Part shown: piece after piece, positions 1-62,026 of the stretch | Layout of the letters: every line of letters begins with the position of its first letter | How positions within the stretch are numbered: the first letter of the stretch is position 1 | Assembly (NCBI GenBank): GCA_038212275.1 | Contig: JBBQUR010000005.1 | Location: 160,001 to 224,000 of the forward strand | Reading direction: 5' to 3' | Length of the DNA stretch: 64,000 nt | From: Planctomycetota bacterium | GTDB taxonomy: Bacteria > Planctomycetota > B15-G4 | The notes under the pieces: generated by a model | What the model saw: only the letters and a program-made list of their open reading frames with translations | Told to the model about the DNA's origin: nothing | Database searches by the model: none | Position numbers and translations under genes: made by a program

Positions 1-1
1 C

Positions 2-2011
2 GGCCGGAACTTCACCAGCTCGGCCAACTTCGGCACGAATCGCTCGGAGAACATCGACCCGGGCGACGTGGACAACGACGGCGACATGGACGTCGGCGTG
101 GCCAACGGCGGTGACTTCGGCAAGGAGGCCAACCGCCTCTTCATCAACCTCGGCGGCCTGCAGGGCGGCACCGTGGGCCTGTTCACCGAGGAGACAGCGA
201 CGCGCTTCGCCGGCGTGACGCTCGACACCTCGCGCGACATCGAGTTCGTGGACGTGGACAACGACGCCGACCTCGACGTGTTCATCGCCAACCGCGGCAA
301 CCTGGTAAACGGCGGCGAGCCCAGCCGCTTCTACACCAACCTTGGCGGACTGCAGGGCGGCACGATCGGCTTCTTCCAGGAGGACACGAACCTGCGCTGG
401 GGCCAGCTCGTGGGCGTGCCGCTCGGCGATCAGGTGTTCGGCGGCAACGCCGGCCCCTTCCGCGAATACTCCTGCGATTGCGACTTCGCGGACCTCGATG
501 ACGACGGCGACAGCGATCTCTTCTTCAGCAGTTACGGGCCGGCCCTCAACGGGACGCGCGAGTCGCGCATCTTCCTGAACAGCGGATCCGGCGTGTTCGA
601 CGAGTTGTACCCGTGGGCCAACGCCGGAGCCGACATCAAGCTCCACACCTTCGACATGGATCTCGCGGACCTCGACGGCGACTTCGACATCGACATCTCG
701 ATGTCCAGCCGCGACAGCCAGGCGCGGCAGTACATCAACAATCTGTACAACCCGCTGAGCTCATCGCCATTCCAGGACACGACGCAGTGGGCGCTGCTCA
801 CGGGCCAACCGGGCGGCTCCGCCAGCGTGAACTACGAGACCGAGTACGCCGACGTGGACGGTGACGGCGACTTCGATCTCTGGATGCTGGACTACAACGG
901 CAACCTCGATCGCGTCTTCCGCAACGACGGATTCACACCGGGACAGGGCGCGCATTTCACCCAGATGAACGCCTGGCTCAAGGGCGACCCGAATGTGGAC
1001 GAGAACGAAATCGACTTCATCGACTACGACGGGGATGGCGACCTCGACGCCTTCATCGCCAACTTCAGCGGCACGAATTACATGTACCAGAGCGGGCTCG
1101 CGCAGGGCCTGCACTACGACACCGTGGGCCTGTTCCACCGCACGGGCCTGGCATCCGGACTCTCGCCCAATCCGGAACTCCCGTCTACCTTCAACGGTAA
1201 CACCACGCTCGACGCCGATGTCGCCGACATCGACAACGACGGCGACGATGACCTGCTGCTGTGCAACGACGCCAACCAGCAGAACTATCTCTTCCGCAAC
1301 GTGCTCGGCGTGCCCGATACGCATGCGCCGACCTTCTACAAGCTGACTGTCGTGCCGGCCAACGTGCCGAATGGCATCCCGCAGGTCGTGCACGCACAGA
1401 TCCGCGACAACACCAGTTACTACCTGACCAGCTTCTACCCGGCCGTGCTGCACTACTCGGTGAACAACGGCCCGGACGTGGCATTGCCGATGTTCGCTCA
1501 GGGCAGCATGCAGTTCCGCGGGGTCATTCCGGCGCAGACCGACGCCACCGTCTCCTACTACATCGAGTGCGCCGACCTCGCCGGCAACATCTCGGCCTGT
1601 GCCGTGATGTGCTACGAGCAGGGCGTCGCGCCGACGCCGTGGAGCAACCTCGGCTTCGGGCTCGCGGGAATCGCGGGCGTGCCGACGCTCACCGGCACCG
1701 GCTCGCTCGTCGCGCAGTGTCCGCTGACGCTCGACCTCGCGAATGCCAGGCCCGCAGCGCTCGCCGCGCTCTTTCTGTCGATCACGTCGACACCCGTGCC
1801 CTTCAAGGGCGGCATGCTGGCTGCCTTCCCGCCGCTCTCCGGCTTCCCGCTGCTGCTCTCGACCGGCGCCGGCACGCTGTCGCTGCCCGCGACGATGCCC
1901 TCCGGCACGAGCGGCCTCGGCCTCGAGCTTTTCCTCCAGTACGCCATCGCTGACGCGGCGGCCGTCAAGGGCGTCGCGCTGAGCAATGCGCTCAAGGGCG
2001 ACGTGCCGTAG
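2..2011 (+). CDS. FG-GAP/VCBS-type repeat exoprotein with conserved ~120-aa C-terminal domain (5' partial)
   Basis: Frame is open from base 2. Many DxDxDGDxD Ca-binding repeats (DVDNDGDMD, DLDDDGDSD, DLDGDFDID, DVDGDGDFD, DYDGDGDLD, DIDNDGDDD). C-terminus is homologous to that of the CDS ending at 50741. Confidence 0.85.
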   Translation, partial: GRNFTSSANFGTNRSENIDPGDVDNDGDMDVGVANGGDFGKEANRLFINLGGLQGGTVGLFTEETATRFAGVTLDTSRDIEFVDVDNDADLDVFIANRGNLVNGGEPSRFYTNLGGLQGGTIGFFQEDTNLRWGQLVGVPLGDQVFGGNAGPFREYSCDCDFADLDDDGDSDLFFSSYGPALNGTRESRIFLNSGSGVFDELYPWANAGADIKLHTFDMDLADLDGDFDIDISMSSRDSQARQYINNLYNPLSSSPFQDTTQWALLTGQPGGSASVNYETEYADVDGDGDFDLWMLDYNGNLDRVFRNDGFTPGQGAHFTQMNAWLKGDPNVDENEIDFIDYDGDGDLDAFIANFSGTNYMYQSGLAQGLHYDTVGLFHRTGLASGLSPNPELPSTFNGNTTLDADVADIDNDGDDDLLLCNDANQQNYLFRNVLGVPDTHAPTFYKLTVVPANVPNGIPQVVHAQIRDNTSYYLTSFYPAVLHYSVNNGPDVALPMFAQGSMQFRGVIPAQTDATVSYYIECADLAGNISACAVMCYEQGVAPTPWSNLGFGLAGIAGVPTLTGTGSLVAQCPLTLDLANARPAALAALFLSITSTPVPFKGGMLAAFPPLSGFPLLLSTGAGTLSLPATMPSGTSGLGLELFLQYAIADAAAVKGVALSNALKGDVP

Positions 2012-47801: not shown

Positions 47802-50741
47802 GTGTCCCGCTGCCGCCCATGCTCCTGCTTCATGGCCCTGTTTCCGACGCTGCTCGCCCTGCTGTTCGTGGGGCGGCCCGCGGCCGGCCAGGTGCCGCTG
47901 CTCACTTACCACGGCAATTCCAACGGCGCGGAGTTCGGCACCGCACTCGCCTACGCCGAAGGCATCCAGGGCAAGTTCGTGCCGTACATCCTCGTGGGTT
48001 GCCCGGAGGACGACAGCGTCGGCGAGGATGCCGGCCGAGTCGACGTCTACAACAGTGGCGACGGCTCGCTCGTGCGCACGCACTACGGCGCGGCCACTGG
48101 CGACCGCTTCGGCACCGCGTTGGTCGGCCTCCAGGATCTGGACGGCGACGGGCATGGCGACTACGCGATCGGCGCGCCCTTCGCGGACAGCCACGGCACC
48201 GACTCCGGGCAGGTGAAGGTGTACTGCGGCACCGACGGCCATCTGATCGCCACGATCAACGGCCTGGCCGCCGGCGACCGTTTCGGCTCCGCCATGGGCA
48301 ACCTCGGGCTCATCAAGCTCAGCCCGTCGGACCCCGAGGGCCTGCCGAGTCTGGCCATCGGCGCGCCGTATGCCGACGGTCCGGCCGGCGCCGACACGGG
48401 TGCGGTCTTCTTCCGCATCGCCGACGGAAGCCTGATTCCGGGCGTGCTGCCCGAGAAGCGGGGCGTGCAGGCGGCCGAGCACTACGGCAGTGCGATCGAC
48501 GGGCGCCTTGACGCGTTGGTCATCGGCGCGCCCGACTACAACGGCCTCGCGGGCACCGACTCGGGTCGGTACGAGGCGTGGACCGTGTACGGACTCGGTA
48601 GCTCGGGGACGTTCGAGTTCGAGGTGCGCGGCACCGCGCCGAACGCGCATCTCGGCACCGCCGTCGCCATCGTCGACTGGCCGAAGCCGATCGCGACCCT
48701 CTATTCCGTCTACGCGGCGGGCGCGCCGGGCGGAACCTCGCCGTACGTGACGATCGACGCGATCAACACGCTGCTGGGCCAGCCGCCGCAGTCGCACCTG
48801 ACGACGCTCGTCGGTACGGGTGGCTTCGGCTCGGCCGTCGCCAGCACGGGCGCCTCTCTCGGCGGCGGTTCCCTCATCGCCATCGGCGCCCCGGACTTCG
48901 TGGTCGGCGGCACCTCCAAGGGCCGCGTCTGGATCTACGAGTACGGCACCTTCCTCAAGGCGGTGGACGGCGAGGTCACGGGCGAGCGCTTCGGCGCGAC
49001 GATCGCGGGACAGTTCGTGTACCCGGCGGTGTACCCGTACTCGTGGGATCACTTCCTCATCGGCGCGCCGCAGTCGGACGGCACGGTGCCGGACGCGGGC
49101 CGGGTCGTGCAGAACCACGTCGGCGACCTGCAGTTCGAGCTGCCGGCGCCGCCAACCTTCGGCGACGCCGCGGGCAGCGCCGTGGCTGGCGTCGGCGACA
49201 TCGACGGCGATGGCGTGCCCGACGTGCTCGTCGGCAGCCCGGACGACGATGTCCCGGCCTCGTTCCCGATCGTCAGTGAACGCATCGACTGCGGGAGTGC
49301 CAGGGTGCTGTCCGGCGCGACCGGCGCGGTGCTGCGCACGCACCTCGGCGGCTCCGACGGCGATCACCTCGGCGCATCGGTCGCGGCGCTGGGCGACATC
49401 AACCTCGATGGCACCACCGACTACGTGATCGGCGCACCGCAGTTCGACAACACGAGCACCACCGCCGGCTACGCGATCGTGGTGTCCGGCAAGACGGGCT
49501 CCACGCTGTTCACGCTGAACGGCTTCTTCAACTCCGGCGAGTTCGGCGCGGCGGTCGGCGGCGGCAGCGACGTGAACGGCGATGGCAGACCCGACATCCT
49601 GGTCGGCTCGCCAGGCACCTCCAACGGCAACGTGACCGCGTACTCGGGCATCAACGGCGCCTCGCTCGGCGTCGTCAACGGCGCGAACGCCGGCGACCGC
49701 TTCGGCGCCGCGGTCGCGGGCCTCGGCGCGGACCTCGACGGCGACGGCAAGCAGGAGTACGTCGTCGGCGCGCCGGGCTTCGACGGTCTCGGCGGCGCCG
49801 ACAGCGGGCGCGCCTACCTGATGAAGAGCGTCGTCTCGCTGTTGACGATCAACGCCGCGAGCGGTTTCCATGCGAACGATCACCTGGGCACGGCGGTCGC
49901 GGCCGCGGGCGACGTGAACAAGGACGGCAAGGCCGACTACCTCGTCGGCATTCCCGAGTACGACAGCCCGGCCACGGACGCCGGCCGCGTGCAGCTCCTC
50001 TCGGGCGTCGCCGGCTTGCCCACGCAGCTCGCGACGGTCTCGGGCCTCGGCGCCAACGACCGCTTCGGCAGCTCACTCACCGCCCTCGGCGACGTGAACC
50101 ACGACGGCTGGCTCGACTGGGCCGCCGGCGCGCGCGAGCTCGACCCGTTCCTGCCGGGCAACGGCTACGTGCGCATCATGTCCGGCAAGGACAACACGCA
50201 GCTTCTGCTCATCGCGGGCTCAGTGAGCGAGACCTTCGGCGCCGCGATCGCGGATGCCGGCGACGTGGATGGCGACGGCACGCGCGACCTGCTGGTCGGC
50301 GGCCCGTACGACAACAGCTTCGGGTACCACTCGGGCGCCGCGCACGTCGTCTCGCTCGCCACCGGCGCGCCGGTCTGGACCGACCTGGGCTTCGCGCTGG
50401 CCGGCACGCCGGGCCTGCCGTCGCTGGTGGGCACCGGCAGTCTGGTGGCCGGAACCGCCGGCGCGCTCACGCTCTCGAACGCGAAGGCCTCTTCGCTCGC
50501 GTACGTGTTCGTCGCGCTGTCCGCTGCGCCGACGCCGTTCAAGGGCGGCACGCTGGTGCCGATCCCGCCGCTGCTGACGCTCGTGCTGGGCACCAACGCG
50601 TCGGGCGGCCTGACGCTGCCGTGGGCCGCGTGGCCCGCGGGCCTCTCGGGCCTGGACCTGTACTTCCAGGAAGCGATCCAGGACGCCGCCGCGGTGAAGG
50701 GTGCCGCGCTGAGCAACGCGCTGCGCGCCGACGTGCCGTGA
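47802..50741 (+). CDS. integrin-alpha/FG-GAP repeat exoprotein with conserved ~120-aa C-terminal domain
   Basis: Signal peptide; more than 10 FG...DxxGDG...GAP repeats; GGAG SD before GTG 47802 (ATG 47832 is an alternative). C-terminus is homologous to that of CDS 2..2011. Confidence 0.9.
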   Translation: MSRCRPCSCFMALFPTLLALLFVGRPAAGQVPLLTYHGNSNGAEFGTALAYAEGIQGKFVPYILVGCPEDDSVGEDAGRVDVYNSGDGSLVRTHYGAATGDRFGTALVGLQDLDGDGHGDYAIGAPFADSHGTDSGQVKVYCGTDGHLIATINGLAAGDRFGSAMGNLGLIKLSPSDPEGLPSLAIGAPYADGPAGADTGAVFFRIADGSLIPGVLPEKRGVQAAEHYGSAIDGRLDALVIGAPDYNGLAGTDSGRYEAWTVYGLGSSGTFEFEVRGTAPNAHLGTAVAIVDWPKPIATLYSVYAAGAPGGTSPYVTIDAINTLLGQPPQSHLTTLVGTGGFGSAVASTGASLGGGSLIAIGAPDFVVGGTSKGRVWIYEYGTFLKAVDGEVTGERFGATIAGQFVYPAVYPYSWDHFLIGAPQSDGTVPDAGRVVQNHVGDLQFELPAPPTFGDAAGSAVAGVGDIDGDGVPDVLVGSPDDDVPASFPIVSERIDCGSARVLSGATGAVLRTHLGGSDGDHLGASVAALGDINLDGTTDYVIGAPQFDNTSTTAGYAIVVSGKTGSTLFTLNGFFNSGEFGAAVGGGSDVNGDGRPDILVGSPGTSNGNVTAYSGINGASLGVVNGANAGDRFGAAVAGLGADLDGDGKQEYVVGAPGFDGLGGADSGRAYLMKSVVSLLTINAASGFHANDHLGTAVAAAGDVNKDGKADYLVGIPEYDSPATDAGRVQLLSGVAGLPTQLATVSGLGANDRFGSSLTALGDVNHDGWLDWAAGARELDPFLPGNGYVRIMSGKDNTQLLLIAGSVSETFGAAIADAGDVDGDGTRDLLVGGPYDNSFGYHSGAAHVVSLATGAPVWTDLGFALAGTPGLPSLVGTGSLVAGTAGALTLSNAKASSLAYVFVALSAAPTPFKGGTLVPIPPLLTLVLGTNASGGLTLPWAAWPAGLSGLDLYFQEAIQDAAAVKGAALSNALRADVP

Positions 50742-51049: not shown

Positions 51050-52276
<1,227 letters not shown>

Positions 52277-52368
52277 GCCGGATACGACTCGTGCCTGGTC
52301 AACCTTGCATCGTCGGCCGACCGGCGTGACTCCGCAGGAATCCTCGGGGCGCCCACGCTGGGGCGACC

Positions 52369-52411
52369 CAGTCCCTGAATCCCGCAGCCCCGCAGTCCCT
52401 CAGTCCCGCAG
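52369..52411. repeat. 8-bp tandem repeat CAGTCCC(G/T)-like x5 spanning the AAA+ ATPase stop codon
   Basis: cagtccct gaatcccg cagccccg cagtccct cagtcccg cag. Confidence 0.75.
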
Positions 52412-54137
52412 GCTCTTCGCCATGTCGTCGAAGACGTCCTTGTAGATGCGGCCGCCGATCAGCTCGTCCTTGGCGACGAGCGAGTTCAGGTAGAGGCCTT
52501 CGAGGACCAGCTCCATCACGGCGGCGAGTTCTTCGTCGGTCTTGCTGGGCAGGTGGCGGTCCGCGACGTCGCGCAGACCCGGCACGGCGTCGAGCAGCGC
52601 GAAGAACTCGCGCGCGGGCAGCTCGTCGGAGAGGTCGAGCGTCCCGCCCTTGCGGAACCAGCGCAGGATGGGCTTGTAGGCCGAGTCTTCCTCGGGCGCA
52701 TCGAGGCTGCCGCTCGGGGCGGGGCCGTCGGGGCCGCGGCCCTTCGCCGAGCCGCCCTTGCCACCGCTTCCGCGCTCGGCGCCTGCGCGTCCGCCTCTCT
52801 CGCTGCTGCCACCGGCTGCGGAGTCTCCGGGTGCGCCGCCACGAGGTCGCGCATCGCTGCGACCCGTCACCGCGAGCGCATCGGGGAAGTGCCGCGCGAA
52901 GACGGTCTTCAGCGCGTGGCCCACGAGGTGCAGTGCCACGGCCGCGGGGCCCTCGCGCTCGCCTTCGTAGACCAGCTCGATCTTGCCGGTGATGGCCGGC
53001 GTCGCGGCGACGAGGTCGGCGACGCGAGCGACGGCGTGGCTCTCGTGCGCGAGGATCGCGCGGCGCTCGGCGCCCGAGACGAGGTTCTCCATGAGCGCGA
53101 TGGTGACGCGCGCGGAGACGCCGCTGTTCTGGTCCACGAACTCGTTGGCGCGCGCCGCGAAGGCCACGTCTTCCACCGCGTCCTTCAACCACTCGGGGAC
53201 GGTCACCACGACGGTGTCGCGGGCGTCGCCGGCATCGCCACTGCCGGCCACGCCGCCGGCCGCTCCGCGCGCCTCGCCGCCCGCGCCCTGCGGCACGGAG
53301 CGATCCACCCACGCCTCCTGCGCGGTGATCGCGCGGCCTTCGGCCAGCGTGCGCGGATAGTGCGTGAGGATCTGGCTCGAGATGCGGTCGCGCAGCGGCG
53401 TGATGATGCTGCCGCGGTTGGTGTAGTCCTCGGGATTGGCGCTGAAGACCAGCGCGAGGTCCAGCGGCAGGCGCACGGGGAAGCCGCGGATCTGCACGTC
53501 GCCCTCTTCCAGGATGTTCAGCAGGCCCACCTGGATGCGCGCCTGCAGGTCGGGCAGCTCGTTGATCGCGAAGATGCCGCGGTTGGTGCGCGGGATGATG
53601 CCGTAGTGGATGACCTCGGGGTCCGCGAAGGAGAGCTTGCGCGTCGCGGCCTTGATCGGGTCGATGTCGCCGATGAGGTCGGCGACGGTCACGTCGGGCG
53701 TCGCGAGCTTCTCGCGGTAGCGCTCCTCGCGCGGCCACCACGCGACGGGCAGGTCGTCGCCCATTTCCGCGTGGCGGCGCCGGCACGCGGCGCAGATCGG
53801 CGCGAGCGGGTCGTCGTTGAGTTCGCAGCCGGCGACGACGGGCACGGCGTCGTCCAGCAGCGCGGGCAGCGCGCGCAGCAGGCGCGTCTTGGCCTGGCCG
53901 CGCAGGCCCAGCAGGATGAAGTCGTGGCCGGAGAGAATGGCCTTCTGCACCTGCGGGACCACCGTGCGGTCGTAGCCGATGAGCCCGGGGAAGACGCTCT
54001 CGCCGCGGCGGAGCTTGTCGATGAGGTTCTCGCGCAGCTCCTGCTTCACGGGCCGGCTCTTCCAGCCGGACGCCTTGAGGGCGCCGAGGGTCCCGGCGCG
54101 CGAGTGGGGCTTCAAGCGGACCTCATGCGGACTGAGC

Positions 54138-58435: not shown

Positions 58436-61400
58436 TCAGGGCAGCGTGAGCGTCGCGGCGTTCTTCGCGTTGGCCGACTGGTTGTAGAAGAAGTCCGGCG
58501 TGTCGCCGCCGAAGCCGATGAAGAAGGCGTCGGCCGTGGCGGTGCTGCCGATGTAGGCCGGGCTGAGCGTGAGCATTGTCGGCGCGGCGGGGGTGTAGGG
58601 CCCCAGCGTGAACGTCGCCACGCCGGCGGCATTCGTGCGCTGCGTGGGGAAGAAGTCGGCGCCGCCGAGGTCGCCGGCCCAGAGCGCGCGCACCGGCGCA
58701 TCGTTCACCGGGAGGCCGGCGTGATCCACGACGGTGATCGTGCCCGTCACGGTGAAGGGCCCGCTGCCCGAGGTCTGCAGCGTGATGTCGGCGACGTGAT
58801 AGAGCGGCGGCTCCGTCGTGAAGCTGCCTTCCGCGATGCCCGCGTTGCCGCTGCGATCCGTCGCCGTGACGCGCCAGAAGAGCAGCGTGCGCGCGGGCAG
58901 GTCGGTGAGGATGACGTCGTGCTCCGAGCGCAGCGCGACGTCGGCCACGGCGGGAAGCGTGTAGTTGCCGGCGGCGAGGCCCAGCTCCACGAGCAGCATC
59001 GCCGGCTCGTCGCAGGCCGCGTGCAGCGTGGCCGTGTCGGTGAAGACGTCGAGCGCCGACGCGGTCAGGAACTGCGGCGCCGTCGTATCGCCTGGCAGCG
59101 TGGCATTGCCGACCAGCGGGTTGCCGCCCGCCAGCAGCTCGACGCTGTCGGCGAAGCCGTCGCGGTCGGTGTCTGCGCTGTCCGGGCTGGTTCCGGTGCC
59201 CCGCTCGATGCCGTCCGGGATGCCGTCCTCGTCGCGGTCGATGCCCAGGCGCACGGCCATGCCGGGCGGCACGCAGGTGAAGGTCGCGAGCATCTTGCCC
59301 GTGGTGATCGCACCCACGATGGGGCCGCGCGGGATCCAGCGGCCGGTGTCGGTCTGGTAGCGGAACTCCTGGCTGAGCGGGTCGAAGCCGAAGCGCAGGC
59401 CCACCGGCACGCGGGCGCCGCCGGGCAGCAGCAGCTGCGTCTTGCCGATGAGCTCCACGGCGGGCGGCGACAGCTCGGCCTGGCCTTCCGCGAGATCGAG
59501 CCAGTCGTACAGGCCCGAGTAGTCGCTCGCGTCGGCGCTGAACTGCTGGCCGACAAGCGGCGAGAGGCCCGTGTCCCAGCCGCGCACGAAGGTGGCGATG
59601 GCGTCGCGATCAGCGGCCGTCAGCAACGGGAAAGCCGGTGCGCCGTTGGGCGGCACGAAGTCCAGGAATTCGTCGAGGCCGTTCAGCGCGCCGTCGTGCA
59701 GCGTGCCGAAGCCGGTGAGCGTGGGGAACTCCTTCTCGTAGGTGCCGCGGAGCTGCGCGGTGTTGAAGAGCTGGCCCTCGCCGTCGAAGTTCACCGTCGC
59801 CTGCGAGCCCGTGAAGTCCGTGCCGTCGGTGAAGTTGCCCTTGTGGCAGTCGATGCAGGTCACGTTGCCTGGAATGGCGTTGTTGTATTCCTTGCCCGGC
59901 ACGAGCGGGTTCATGCCGAAGAGGTCGCGGCCCGTCGCGGCGATGCCGGTGTAGACGCGGTCCTTCGGTTCGTGCGGGTTGGGCGGCCAGGTCAGCGAGC
60001 GCACGAAGCTGGAGAACTCCTGCATGTCGCCGGCGCTGATGCCGCTGCCGCCGAGCAGGCCCTCGAAGGCGCCGCGGAACAACTGCAGGAATCGGCGATC
60101 GCCGCGCCAGTGCAGCGGCACCGCGCCGCCGCTGTCCAGACCGCGCAGCGACTGCGTGGTCATCGGGCCCTTGAGCGGGTGCGTCATGATCGAGGTCTTC
60201 AGCGCGAGCTTCGCGCTGTCGAAGCCGAGCGTGCCGGTCATCGCGTCGTCGTAGAAGTAGCCGAGCGCGCCCTGTGGATTGCCGAGGTCCCACGCGAGCT
60301 GATCCATGTGCCCGAAGACGTGGCACGACGCGCAGCTGAAGTTGCCCGTGCCGGCGCCGGTGACGGCGCTCGCGTCGTAGAGGTGACGCCGGCCGACGGC
60401 CACGCCCTGCGGCTCGGGGTCCACGGCCAGTGCGCGCGGCCGGCCGACCGGTGTCAGCGTGGCGCCGAGGTCGAACGCGACCAGCCGCTTGTCGCCGCGC
60501 GTGAAAACGTAGAGCAGCGCGTGCTCGTCGTCCACGGCGAGCCCGGTCGGCAGCGAGCCGACGGAGACTTCCTGCAGCAGCTGGCCGGTGGCGGCGTCGA
60601 GCACGAGCAGCGTGTCGTCGCCGAGGCAGGCGACGAAGGCGCGCGCTCCGGACGCGCCGGTGCTGAAGGCGATGGCGACGGGCTGGGCGTGCTGAGCGGT
60701 CGTCGTCGGCGGCGCGAGCACGATGCGCTGCAGCAGTGCACCGCCCGGCGCCATGATGGAGATTGCATTGTCGAAGGCCGCGCCCGAGAGCACCGGCTCG
60801 AAGCGCGTGCGGTTGTGCGCGAGCTGAGCGGCGACCCACAGCGCGCCGGTCACCGGGTTGCGCTCCAGCGCCAGCAGCGTGCTGCCCGCGTCGGTGGAGA
60901 GCGCCGGCAGCAGCGCGCCGGTGGCCGGGTCGATGCCGATCACGTCGCGGTCGGCCAGCTGCGGCACGAAGCCGGGATACTCGCTGTCGAAGACGATGCG
61001 CGAGGTCTGCGGGATGGCCCAGCCGAACACGCCGAAGTTCTGGTTGAGCCACGCGAGCGTGGAGAGCTGCGGCAGCGTCAGCACGGCATTCGTCGCGAAG
61101 GGCAGGTCAAAGGCATCCAGCGTCAGCTGGCTCAGCCCGAGCGTGGCGGTCTGCGACACGTCCAGCACGGTGGTGTGGTTGCCGGAGTTCTGCGGGATGA
61201 CCCACACGGCGCCGTCGGCCTCGGCCAGGGCGCGCGGCTTGTGGCCCGGCACCGCCACGCGCTGCAGCACCGCGTACGGCGGCGAGGCGGAGGCGATGAC
61301 CACGGCGTTCTCGACGAAGCTGCCCGGCTCGGTGAACGAGTCGGCCTGCGCGGAGCGGGCCGTGGCGACGAAGAGCCTGTCGCCGATGACCAGCACGTCC

Positions 61401-61840
61401 TGCGGTTCATCGCCGATCGCGATCGTGTGCGTGACGACGTGGTTGAGCGTGTCCACGACGGAGATGCTGTCGGAGAGCAGGTTGGCGACGAAGAGCGTGT
61501 GCGGCCGGCCGGGGTGCAGCGTCATCGACACCGGCTCGAGGCCGGTGAACACGGCGCCGGTGTTGCGCAACTGCGGCACGCCGTCGCGGCCGATGTTCGT
61601 GTCCCAGATTTCCACGCGGTGGTCGGGCGTGTTCAGCACGAAGAGCTGGCTGCCGTCGGGCGAGAGCCGCAGCGCGTGCACCGCGCCCGACTCGAAGTTG
61701 GGGAAGGGCGCAGTGGCCATCGACTCCACGGCGCCGTCCTGCGCGGTGGCCGCCGGGAGCAGGCTGAGCGTGGCGGCGAGGGCAAGCGCCAGGGAGGTCA
61801 ACGGGAGCCGCAGCGACGGGCCGGCGGGGCGATGGATCAT
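58436..61840 (-). CDS. secreted YVTN/YncE beta-propeller fused to a di-heme cytochrome c peroxidase-like domain, TSP3-like Ca repeats and FN3/Ig-like domains
   Basis: Signal peptide; [14 protein letters not shown] and GLEPVS propeller motifs; two CxxCH (CASCH, CIDCH); TQSLRGL and [17 protein letters not shown]...DTDRDG; GGAG SD. Confidence 0.85.
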
Positions 61841-61900
61841 GGCGGCACTCCAGTGGCTTGGCTGCGTCACGCGCAGGCAGCGTGGGCGGGGTCGCGGGCG

Positions 61901-61981
61901 CGTGTGGCCCGTGTGGTGCGTGTGGTGCGTGTGGCCCGTGTGGCCCGTGTGGCTCGTGTGGCTCGTGTGGCTCGTGTGGCG
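61901..61981. repeat. 9-bp tandem repeat CGTGTGGNN x9
   Basis: cgtgtggcc, cgtgtggtg x2, cgtgtggcc x2, cgtgtggct x3, cgtgtggcg. Confidence 0.92.
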
Positions 61982-62026
61982 GGGCATTCTAACGCCCGCG
62001 GGTCGATGGGTCGTCAGGGCGCGGAC

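Follow-up and report, generated by a model that had tools for sequence, protein, structure and literature searches.

A module of about 120 residues, carried at one terminus by 4.5% of the predicted proteins of a planctomycete genome, forms a large, unnamed family of Ig-like predicted fold, and we propose that it is an uncleaved, non-covalent docking module of the cell envelope, a reading to which we give a probability of about one half. The module (hereafter, the domain) was noticed on two proteins of the window, i.e., the whole stretch of 64,000 nucleotides analysed here, which belongs to the genome designated G000 (its contigs bear C-numbers). Under the proposed mechanism, Sec-exported proteins would be held at the cell envelope by the domain in one group of Planctomycetota classes, and the domain would take the terminal place that belongs to a dockerin-like module in other planctomycetes.

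The two copies in the window

The two window copies (Table 1) end at the stop codon and are 54.4% identical over 125 columns (tblastn, E = 5.8e-33), with 66% identity of the DNA; the parts upstream of them do not align (best blastp E = 0.11). Both halves of the initial observation, a common C-terminal domain (recovered here as sequences of 123 and 121 residues) and differing upstream regions, are thus borne out. Pfam assigns FG-GAP_3 to the first passenger and both FG-GAP and FG-GAP_3 to the second, and gives no match in the domain region, for which NCBIfam has none either. The first protein has 706 residues in total, with its start 109 bases upstream of the window (C5:159891) and a Sec-type signal peptide; the second has 969 residues and a predicted signal-peptide cleavage site before Gln. 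Among the 120 homologues of the first passenger that were listed, 119 also end in the domain and the remaining one, which is shorter, stops before it; ten of their 11 organism labels are Planctomycetota, and the other, Cytophagaceae, is attached to a 2.4-kb contig. The atlas clusters likewise point to Planctomycetota.

Just past copy 2 lie short forward-strand ORFs (window 51225-52442), which, judging by a motif, we take to resemble pieces of subunit R of a type I restriction system. Further on, the reverse strand (window 58439-61987) encodes a secreted protein of 1183 residues without the domain, the predicted start of which holds a His/Thr-rich repeat and may be a start miscall; its homologue in G156 (L264:5987-8812, 32% identity), a 2.6-Mb carrier genome of another class of which 2,568,485 of about 2,584,000 bases were read, ends in the domain.

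Table 1. Positions of the domain copies, their passengers and further loci named in the text (positions are those of the window unless a genome is named)
Feature	Position	Strand	Basis
Copy 1 of the domain, 123 aa + stop	1640..2011 (coding 1640-2008, stop 2009-2011)	+	translation, tblastn, HMM, structure prediction
Copy 2 of the domain, 121 aa + stop	50376..50741 (coding 50376-50738)	+	translation, tblastn
Passenger 1, in-window part, FG-GAP_3 (VCBS-like) repeat protein	1..1639	+	Pfam
Passenger 2, signal peptide + FG-GAP propeller repeats	47832..50375	+	Pfam, signal-peptide heuristic
Operon: two large atypical secretins, ExbB/ExbD-like, TPR, PilM/N-like	G000 C6:123441-138050 (L293); L167 (G156)		
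Giant Big_5/propeller lipoprotein, 1499 and about 950 aa	G000 C14:70580-75076 (L290); L153:1-2907 (G156)	- (G000)	
Secreted 704-aa protein, no Pfam family	G000 C4:219145-221256 (L296); L210:1028-3247 (G156)		
Pilin/type II-like operon, giant 1727-aa pseudopilin-like protein (1779-aa ORF in G156)	G000 C22:33417-48578 (L294); L237 (G156)		

A large family confined to one group of classes

An iterated HMM finds the domain on 155 of the 3438 predicted G000 proteins and on none in the reversed proteome, so the count is not a product of chance; an HMM iterated on the six-frame ORFs of the same genome gave 135 matches, 130 of them within 4 residues of the stop. The bodies that bear the domain are unrelated, with 127 passengers falling into 67 clusters, and it appears to be an optional add-on, since there are pairs of paralogues of which one has it and the other does not (e.g., neighbouring genes of 46% identity). 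The true number of carriers in G000 is probably above 155, and a pooled HMM gives 158. At four places (C2:25661, C28:20124, C7:24059 and C15:87242) a domain copy is split from its passenger by a frame change, these being broken genes or assembly errors. Five secreted proteins (C8:181124, C6:116357, C15:98219, C14:122237 and C1:221393) have tails that resemble short divergent copies and lie at or below the HMM threshold.

Beyond G000, the domain was found in all 41 relatives, in all 30 genomes of the class and in 49 of 201 genomes of the phylum Planctomycetota (45 of them with at least four matches), where its distribution is near all-or-none by family. None of 50 outside genomes, sampled as loci from a transaldolase query and mostly of other phyla with three labelled Planctomycetia, has it. 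The restriction to a lineage that the earlier note had suspected therefore holds over these samples, and the HMM search that it proposed returned many matches, in G000 on unrelated and mostly signal-peptide-bearing proteins. At E <= 0.001 the profile matches 12,973 clusters at 50% identity, the best 150 of which all end in the domain, and the atlas clusters among the matches consist of hypothetical proteins only. A cultured strain, Engelhardtia mirabilis, also carries it (P0334, E = 3.7e-38), on a homologue of the hydrolase with an N-terminal copy described below.

Family status and predicted fold

Searches with 71 aligned members against Pfam and NCBIfam at E <= 0.1 gave no credible match (one to three stray single-member rows), in agreement with the initial failure to assign a named family, and a PDB sequence search yielded nothing beyond two weak rows (E = 0.26 and 0.81). 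Searches of the literature, supplements aside, brought up no account of the domain, and term searches in the accessible text of 10.1101/817700, PMC11032199 and 10.64898/2026.10.26.761892 gave nothing on it. AlphaFold2 models the domain as an all-beta, helix-free, Ig-like sandwich with high confidence (pLDDT 97.0, pTM 0.89), as the original analogy with a beta-sandwich would have it; the prediction for copy 1 adds to the sandwich an arm at the N-terminus and a PFKGG hairpin. The best structural neighbours are macroglobulin/Ig-like (7s62 at Z 8.3, with 101 residues aligned at rmsd 3.0; 2pn5 and 8s3o at Z 8.2). These scores are close to background for folds of this type, Z >= 8 being reached by 5 of 48161 chains and Z >= 5 by 519. 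Neither a T9SS CTD nor a cohesin chain stands among the best 50 rows, a list too generic to exclude either, and Foldseek returned nothing at E <= 0.001, with the HBP35 protein of P. gingivalis at rank 39 (E = 0.035).

Charged residues make up 7% of the domain against 15% of the passengers and 21% of other proteins; its median pI is 5.2 and its strand faces are rich in Thr, Ser and Val. Gln100 is invariant in 134 sequences, Gly78, Pro15, Pro87, Gly10, Gly5, Asp105 and Gly57 are at least 90% conserved, and conservation is strong at Ser/Thr115-Asn116 and in the PFKGG hairpin; the 12 residues that precede the domain hold no conserved motif. Mean-field couplings, a weak analysis of 399 sequences (effective number 298) made from the alignment alone, rank G57-K110, A12-P38 and L8-V109 third, seventh and eighth, and include the weaker pairs L23-G120, N3-N116 and W1-V24 (the last at rank 60 of 60). 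From this small alignment, it would appear that the N-terminal arm packs on the last hairpin, and that this hairpin and the loop of the arm come together with the PFKGG tip; the weaker couplings would place both termini at the end opposite the PFKGG tip.

Placement at either end

Of the 155 copies in G000, 145 are C-terminal (141 outright, and four on short ORFs that end in the domain), eight are N-terminal and two are internal, one of these doubtfully so. The corresponding search of G156, iterated without a reversed control, grew from 13 matches in the first round to 28 at the end: 19 carriers have the domain at the C-terminus, six directly after the signal peptide and three in other non-terminal positions. 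The N-terminal arrangement is exemplified by an MBL-fold hydrolase (C7:48390), 70 of whose best 120 homologues likewise have the domain N-terminally, where it directly follows the signal peptide and is separated from the catalytic part by 3-12 residues; because so many homologues share it, this placement is no assembly artefact. On a quick tree of 181 copies, from which G000 copies scoring worse than E = 1e-7 and sequences shorter than 95 residues were left out, the 17 non-C-terminal rows entail nine changes, at least two of which are forced by well-supported branches, and the hydrolase copy nests among C-terminal copies, the tree being poorly resolved. Thus, the domain is terminal and not strictly C-terminal, and the idea of a strictly C-terminal signal has to be given up. 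If the N-terminal arm folds back, as predicted, both termini would leave from one end of the sandwich, and this would explain how a passenger can be carried at either end.

As to the outcomes named beforehand as counting against a sorting or anchoring module, i.e., a match to a named family, confinement to a few full-length paralogues, or frequent internal or cytoplasmic copies, none was encountered.

Cargo, export signals and a membrane-bound carrier

Signal peptides, lipoboxes and genes were called by heuristics of our own, and by the permissive one for signal peptides 108 of 126 carriers are positive as against 1153 of 2834 other proteins, in line with the early view of the carriers as signal-peptide proteins. 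Lipoproteins avoid the domain: it occurs on one of 117 lipoprotein-like proteins, with a false lipobox, and on 109 of 661 SPI-like ones (p = 1.6e-7), 43 carriers falling in neither class. Gln follows the predicted cleavage site in 80 of 106 carriers versus 171 of 649 other exported-looking G000 proteins, an enrichment that recalls the Q-rule of Bacteroidota as it stands in the accessible part of PMC5837995. A search of G000 for the glutaminyl cyclase PF05096 found none.

The passengers, as sampled by scanning 74 of 150 representatives, include FG-GAP, Rax2/DUF5122, SBBP, NHL and PD40 propellers, beta-helices, PKD, GSDH, nuclease, CBM96 and Peptidase_C25, and many are without a family. Peptidase_C25 was considered as a PorU-like sortase and rejected, being a passenger elsewhere (2 of the 74) and not detected when two C25 homologues were run against G000 by blastp. 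Three G000 carriers have the CxxCH motifs of c-type cytochromes, one being a nine-haem protein and another a di-haem peroxidase; cytochrome c maturation is periplasmic, and the cargo therefore matures and folds in the periplasm. The nine-haem protein (L302, C25:40935-43262, reverse strand), which has MtrC-like and Big_9 matches and ends in the domain, is a possible surface electron-transfer protein.

A carrier of a different kind is a polytopic GT-C protein (PMT_2; L289, C20:72880-75138), which ends in a full copy of the domain (E = 3e-32) joined through a long Gly/Ala linker. The same ending is found in seven of its nine homologues, and the remaining two are shorter. Hydropathy (10 segments by threshold and an 11th inferred) and the positive-inside rule together suggest that its tail is periplasmic. 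Such a tail suits a docking module reaching across the periplasm well, but an export tag forcing outer-membrane translocation poorly. The fusion may serve to glycosylate domain-bearing proteins or an envelope lipid.

Exchange with a dockerin-like module

In the same slot of the MBL-fold hydrolase family, 27 of the best 120 homologues have a dockerin-like module where the 70 have the domain; none has both, and 23 (two of them fragments) have neither. Of 28 candidates scanned among the 50 homologues without the domain, 23 match NF041540 at E <= 0.01, eight of these over the cut-off, and all four homologues labelled Phycisphaerae have the dockerin-like module. A comparable picture is offered by passenger 2: among five dockerin-rich genomes searched, two have homologues, and in all four distinct genes the aligned part is followed immediately by a terminal dockerin-like module (three called by HMM, one by reading the sequence). 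The four homologues of C8:181124, the G000 protein with a marginal domain copy (tail E = 0.002), found in one dockerin-rich genome, likewise all have dockerin-like ends.

At the level of genomes, NF041540 is found in nine of the 201 of the phylum; the seven with at least two matches are all without the domain, and only one of the 49 domain-positive genomes has a match, a single one. Because the lineages compared are not independent, the exchange speaks for equivalence of the slot, not of the mechanism. The function of the dockerin-like module of Phycisphaerae is itself only hypothesised, a cohesin-dockerin surface complex having been proposed for freshwater members according to the part of PMC6461901 available, and this module, too, could be a targeting tag. 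As for the domain acting as a cohesin, it has no Pfam match, and a dockerin HMM from nine sequences found nothing in G000 or G156 at E < 1e-4.

Secretion machinery and the search for partners

None of the 71 members matches the T9SS CTD models (PF18962 and TIGR04183, type A; TIGR04131, type B) at E <= 0.1. PorV (NF033709) was not found in G000, which is 91% complete, under a working control, nor over the cut-off in five other carrier genomes, where one 43-residue match (E = 3.6e-5) was seen. Models of SprA, PorP/SprF, Por_Secre_tail and Peptidase_C25 had no matches in G000, their controls being silent too. Secretins are represented in G000 by eight matches; the genome also has one operon of canonical type II make-up and an atypical two-secretin/ExbBD/TPR operon (Table 1), the first secretin of which is 35% identical in G156; by its gene content, the latter operon would be an energised outer-membrane machine of unassigned role.

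Partners were sought among the 1033 best-hit pairs of G000 and G156, 96 of which look exported (66 were scanned in Pfam), and three unknown proteins from this intersection were profiled over the 201 genomes of the phylum. A giant lipoprotein with Big_5-like domains, a YncE-type propeller and a terminal S-[FY]-[FY]-x-Q, often in tandem copies, has matches at E <= 1e-15 in 42 of the 45 genomes rich in the domain and in none of 152 domain-negative ones; it is a candidate surface scaffold or a plain clade marker, the best-fitting partner lead and no more. The 704-residue secreted protein, the gene of which lies, in G000 and G156 alike, beside the type II secretion operon and a gene resembling a tRNA synthetase, is present in 44 of the 45 domain-rich genomes plus 11 domain-negative ones. 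A 503-residue secreted protein of the pilin/type II-like operon is spread wider than the domain (90 of 201). Phylogenetic profiling, put forward originally as a route to co-occurring export machinery, thus returned clade-wide signals for all three unknowns and singled out neither a translocon nor any other partner; the gene neighbourhoods of atypical carriers held no shared machinery.

Docking module, export tag or scaffold

As a docking module, the domain would engage the outer membrane through its far end, where the PFKGG hairpin, the last hairpin and the arm loop would form a hydrophobic tip, the target of which may be lipid directly or a membrane-bound receptor, alternatives that we weigh about equally. 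Binding could begin in the periplasm, because the inner-membrane GT-C enzyme has its full copy on a long flexible linker.

A less probable but serious alternative makes the domain a folded tag for export that an outer-membrane translocon (a type II system, one of the atypical secretin operons or an undescribed machine) would recognise in the periplasm, so that folded cargo is routed to the surface or the medium, as by the T9SS CTD. The predominance of C-terminal copies in G000 and the excess of Gln at mature N-termini, as in Bacteroidota, are what such a tag would lead one to expect, as are the three c-type cytochromes, cargo that folds in the periplasm, and the presence of secretins together with the type II and two-secretin operons. 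The cargo is also of the right kind, FG-GAP, SBBP, DUF5122, PKD, GSDH, beta-helix and Peptidase_C25 being typical T9SS cargo classes. However, copies at the N-terminus are frequent and of more than one origin, a polytopic membrane enzyme with a conserved full copy could not be translocated whole, and profiling brought out no translocon gene. T9SS cargo, according to the accessible parts of PMC4804311 and PMC11285876, bears Ig-like tags of low identity that are cut in a sequence-independent manner; since the T9SS tags share these features, the fold, the type of passenger and the missing cleavage motif do not separate an anchor from an export tag. Of the two roles that the earlier note had left side by side, surface attachment fits the evidence better than a secretion signal. 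The choice between anchor and export tag is decidable by experiment, because the cultured Engelhardtia mirabilis carries the domain.

It is improbable that the domain instead associates with itself into a lattice or scaffold (S-layer-like or periplasmic), with the passengers displayed by co-assembly and the GT-C copy recruiting substrates by the same contact. The low charge, the Thr/Ser/Val-rich strand faces and the very high copy number would be in keeping with this, and S-layer chains do occur low in the fold lists (8cka; 7ptp at Z 6.5), at the level of any Ig fold; but every one of the 155 carriers in G000 has a single copy, the genome has no tandem-domain scaffold protein, and the short copies that stand alone have the look of broken genes or miscalled starts. 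The reading of the domain as a true but divergent T9SS CTD, with an unrecognised T9SS behind it, suggested by the Ig-like sandwich, the mostly C-terminal position and the similar cargo, is already largely refuted by the failure of the CTD models, PorV and C25 searches reported above and by the N-terminal copies, which, along with the polytopic carrier, also tell against the T9SS-like signal first invoked by analogy.

A broader and tentative extension, which we regard as possible though doubtful, is that the deep-branching Planctomycetota clade that includes Engelhardtia mirabilis runs an undescribed protein-targeting system, made up of an Ig-like tag usable at either end and a lineage-specific envelope receptor machine, the receptor being perhaps the clade-restricted giant Big_5/propeller lipoprotein or an atypical secretin operon. 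Were this so, up to about 5% of the proteome would be delivered to the surface, and Phycisphaerae would attain the same end via a dockerin-like tag. The domain makes the exported proteome of entire uncultured classes directly readable, and its exchange with the dockerin-like module ties two unexplained terminal modules to a single question, namely how secreted enzymes and adhesins are held or routed in planctomycetes without a T9SS.

Comparison with known systems

By known sequence families, the domain is not a T9SS CTD, a dockerin or a short sorting signal. With the macroglobulin/Ig-like domains of alpha-2-macroglobulin and complement it shares the topology of the beta-sandwich, but the identity is only 9-15% and its residues 1-8 are not covered, and no functional inference is drawn from the likeness. 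The LPxTG/sortase and PEP-CTERM/exosortase signals consist of a motif, a transmembrane helix and a basic tail; like the domain, they are terminal tags common to many exported proteins of one genome. In contrast to them, the domain is a folded all-beta module devoid of a helix, with a median net charge of -2 and no NCBIfam match, and its early separation from these signals stands.

The Bacteroidota T9SS CTD is closer in kind: it is an Ig-like sandwich, as is predicted for the domain with generic Ig neighbours, both stand on proteins with a Sec/SPI signal peptide, both occur on unrelated enzymes and adhesins with low identity among copies, and Gln is common at the mature N-terminus in both. The CTD, as set out in the available portion of PMC11285876, is a compact Ig-like 3+4 sandwich of 70-100 residues, C-terminal and generally cut by PorU, whereas the domain has 121-123 residues with an extra arm and hairpin, stands at either end and is also found on a membrane enzyme; it has no sequence match to the CTD, and PorV was not found alongside it.

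The GC-type dockerin (NCBIfam NF041540; compare Dockerin_1, PF00404) of Phycisphaerae differs in being a module of about 60 residues with calcium-loop motifs, whereas the domain is a 121-residue all-beta sandwich without them, and neither dockerin model matches any of the 71 members; of the two, it is the dockerin for which a cohesin partner has been proposed (PMC6461901, available part). Yet in each case one terminal module is borne by very many secreted proteins per genome (dockerin candidates number 200 or more in each of four genomes), the passengers and the slot, at either end, are the same, and the two modules exclude each other at the level of genomes. To judge from these sequence comparisons, it is the dockerin-type terminal module of Phycisphaerae that the domain would appear to work most like.
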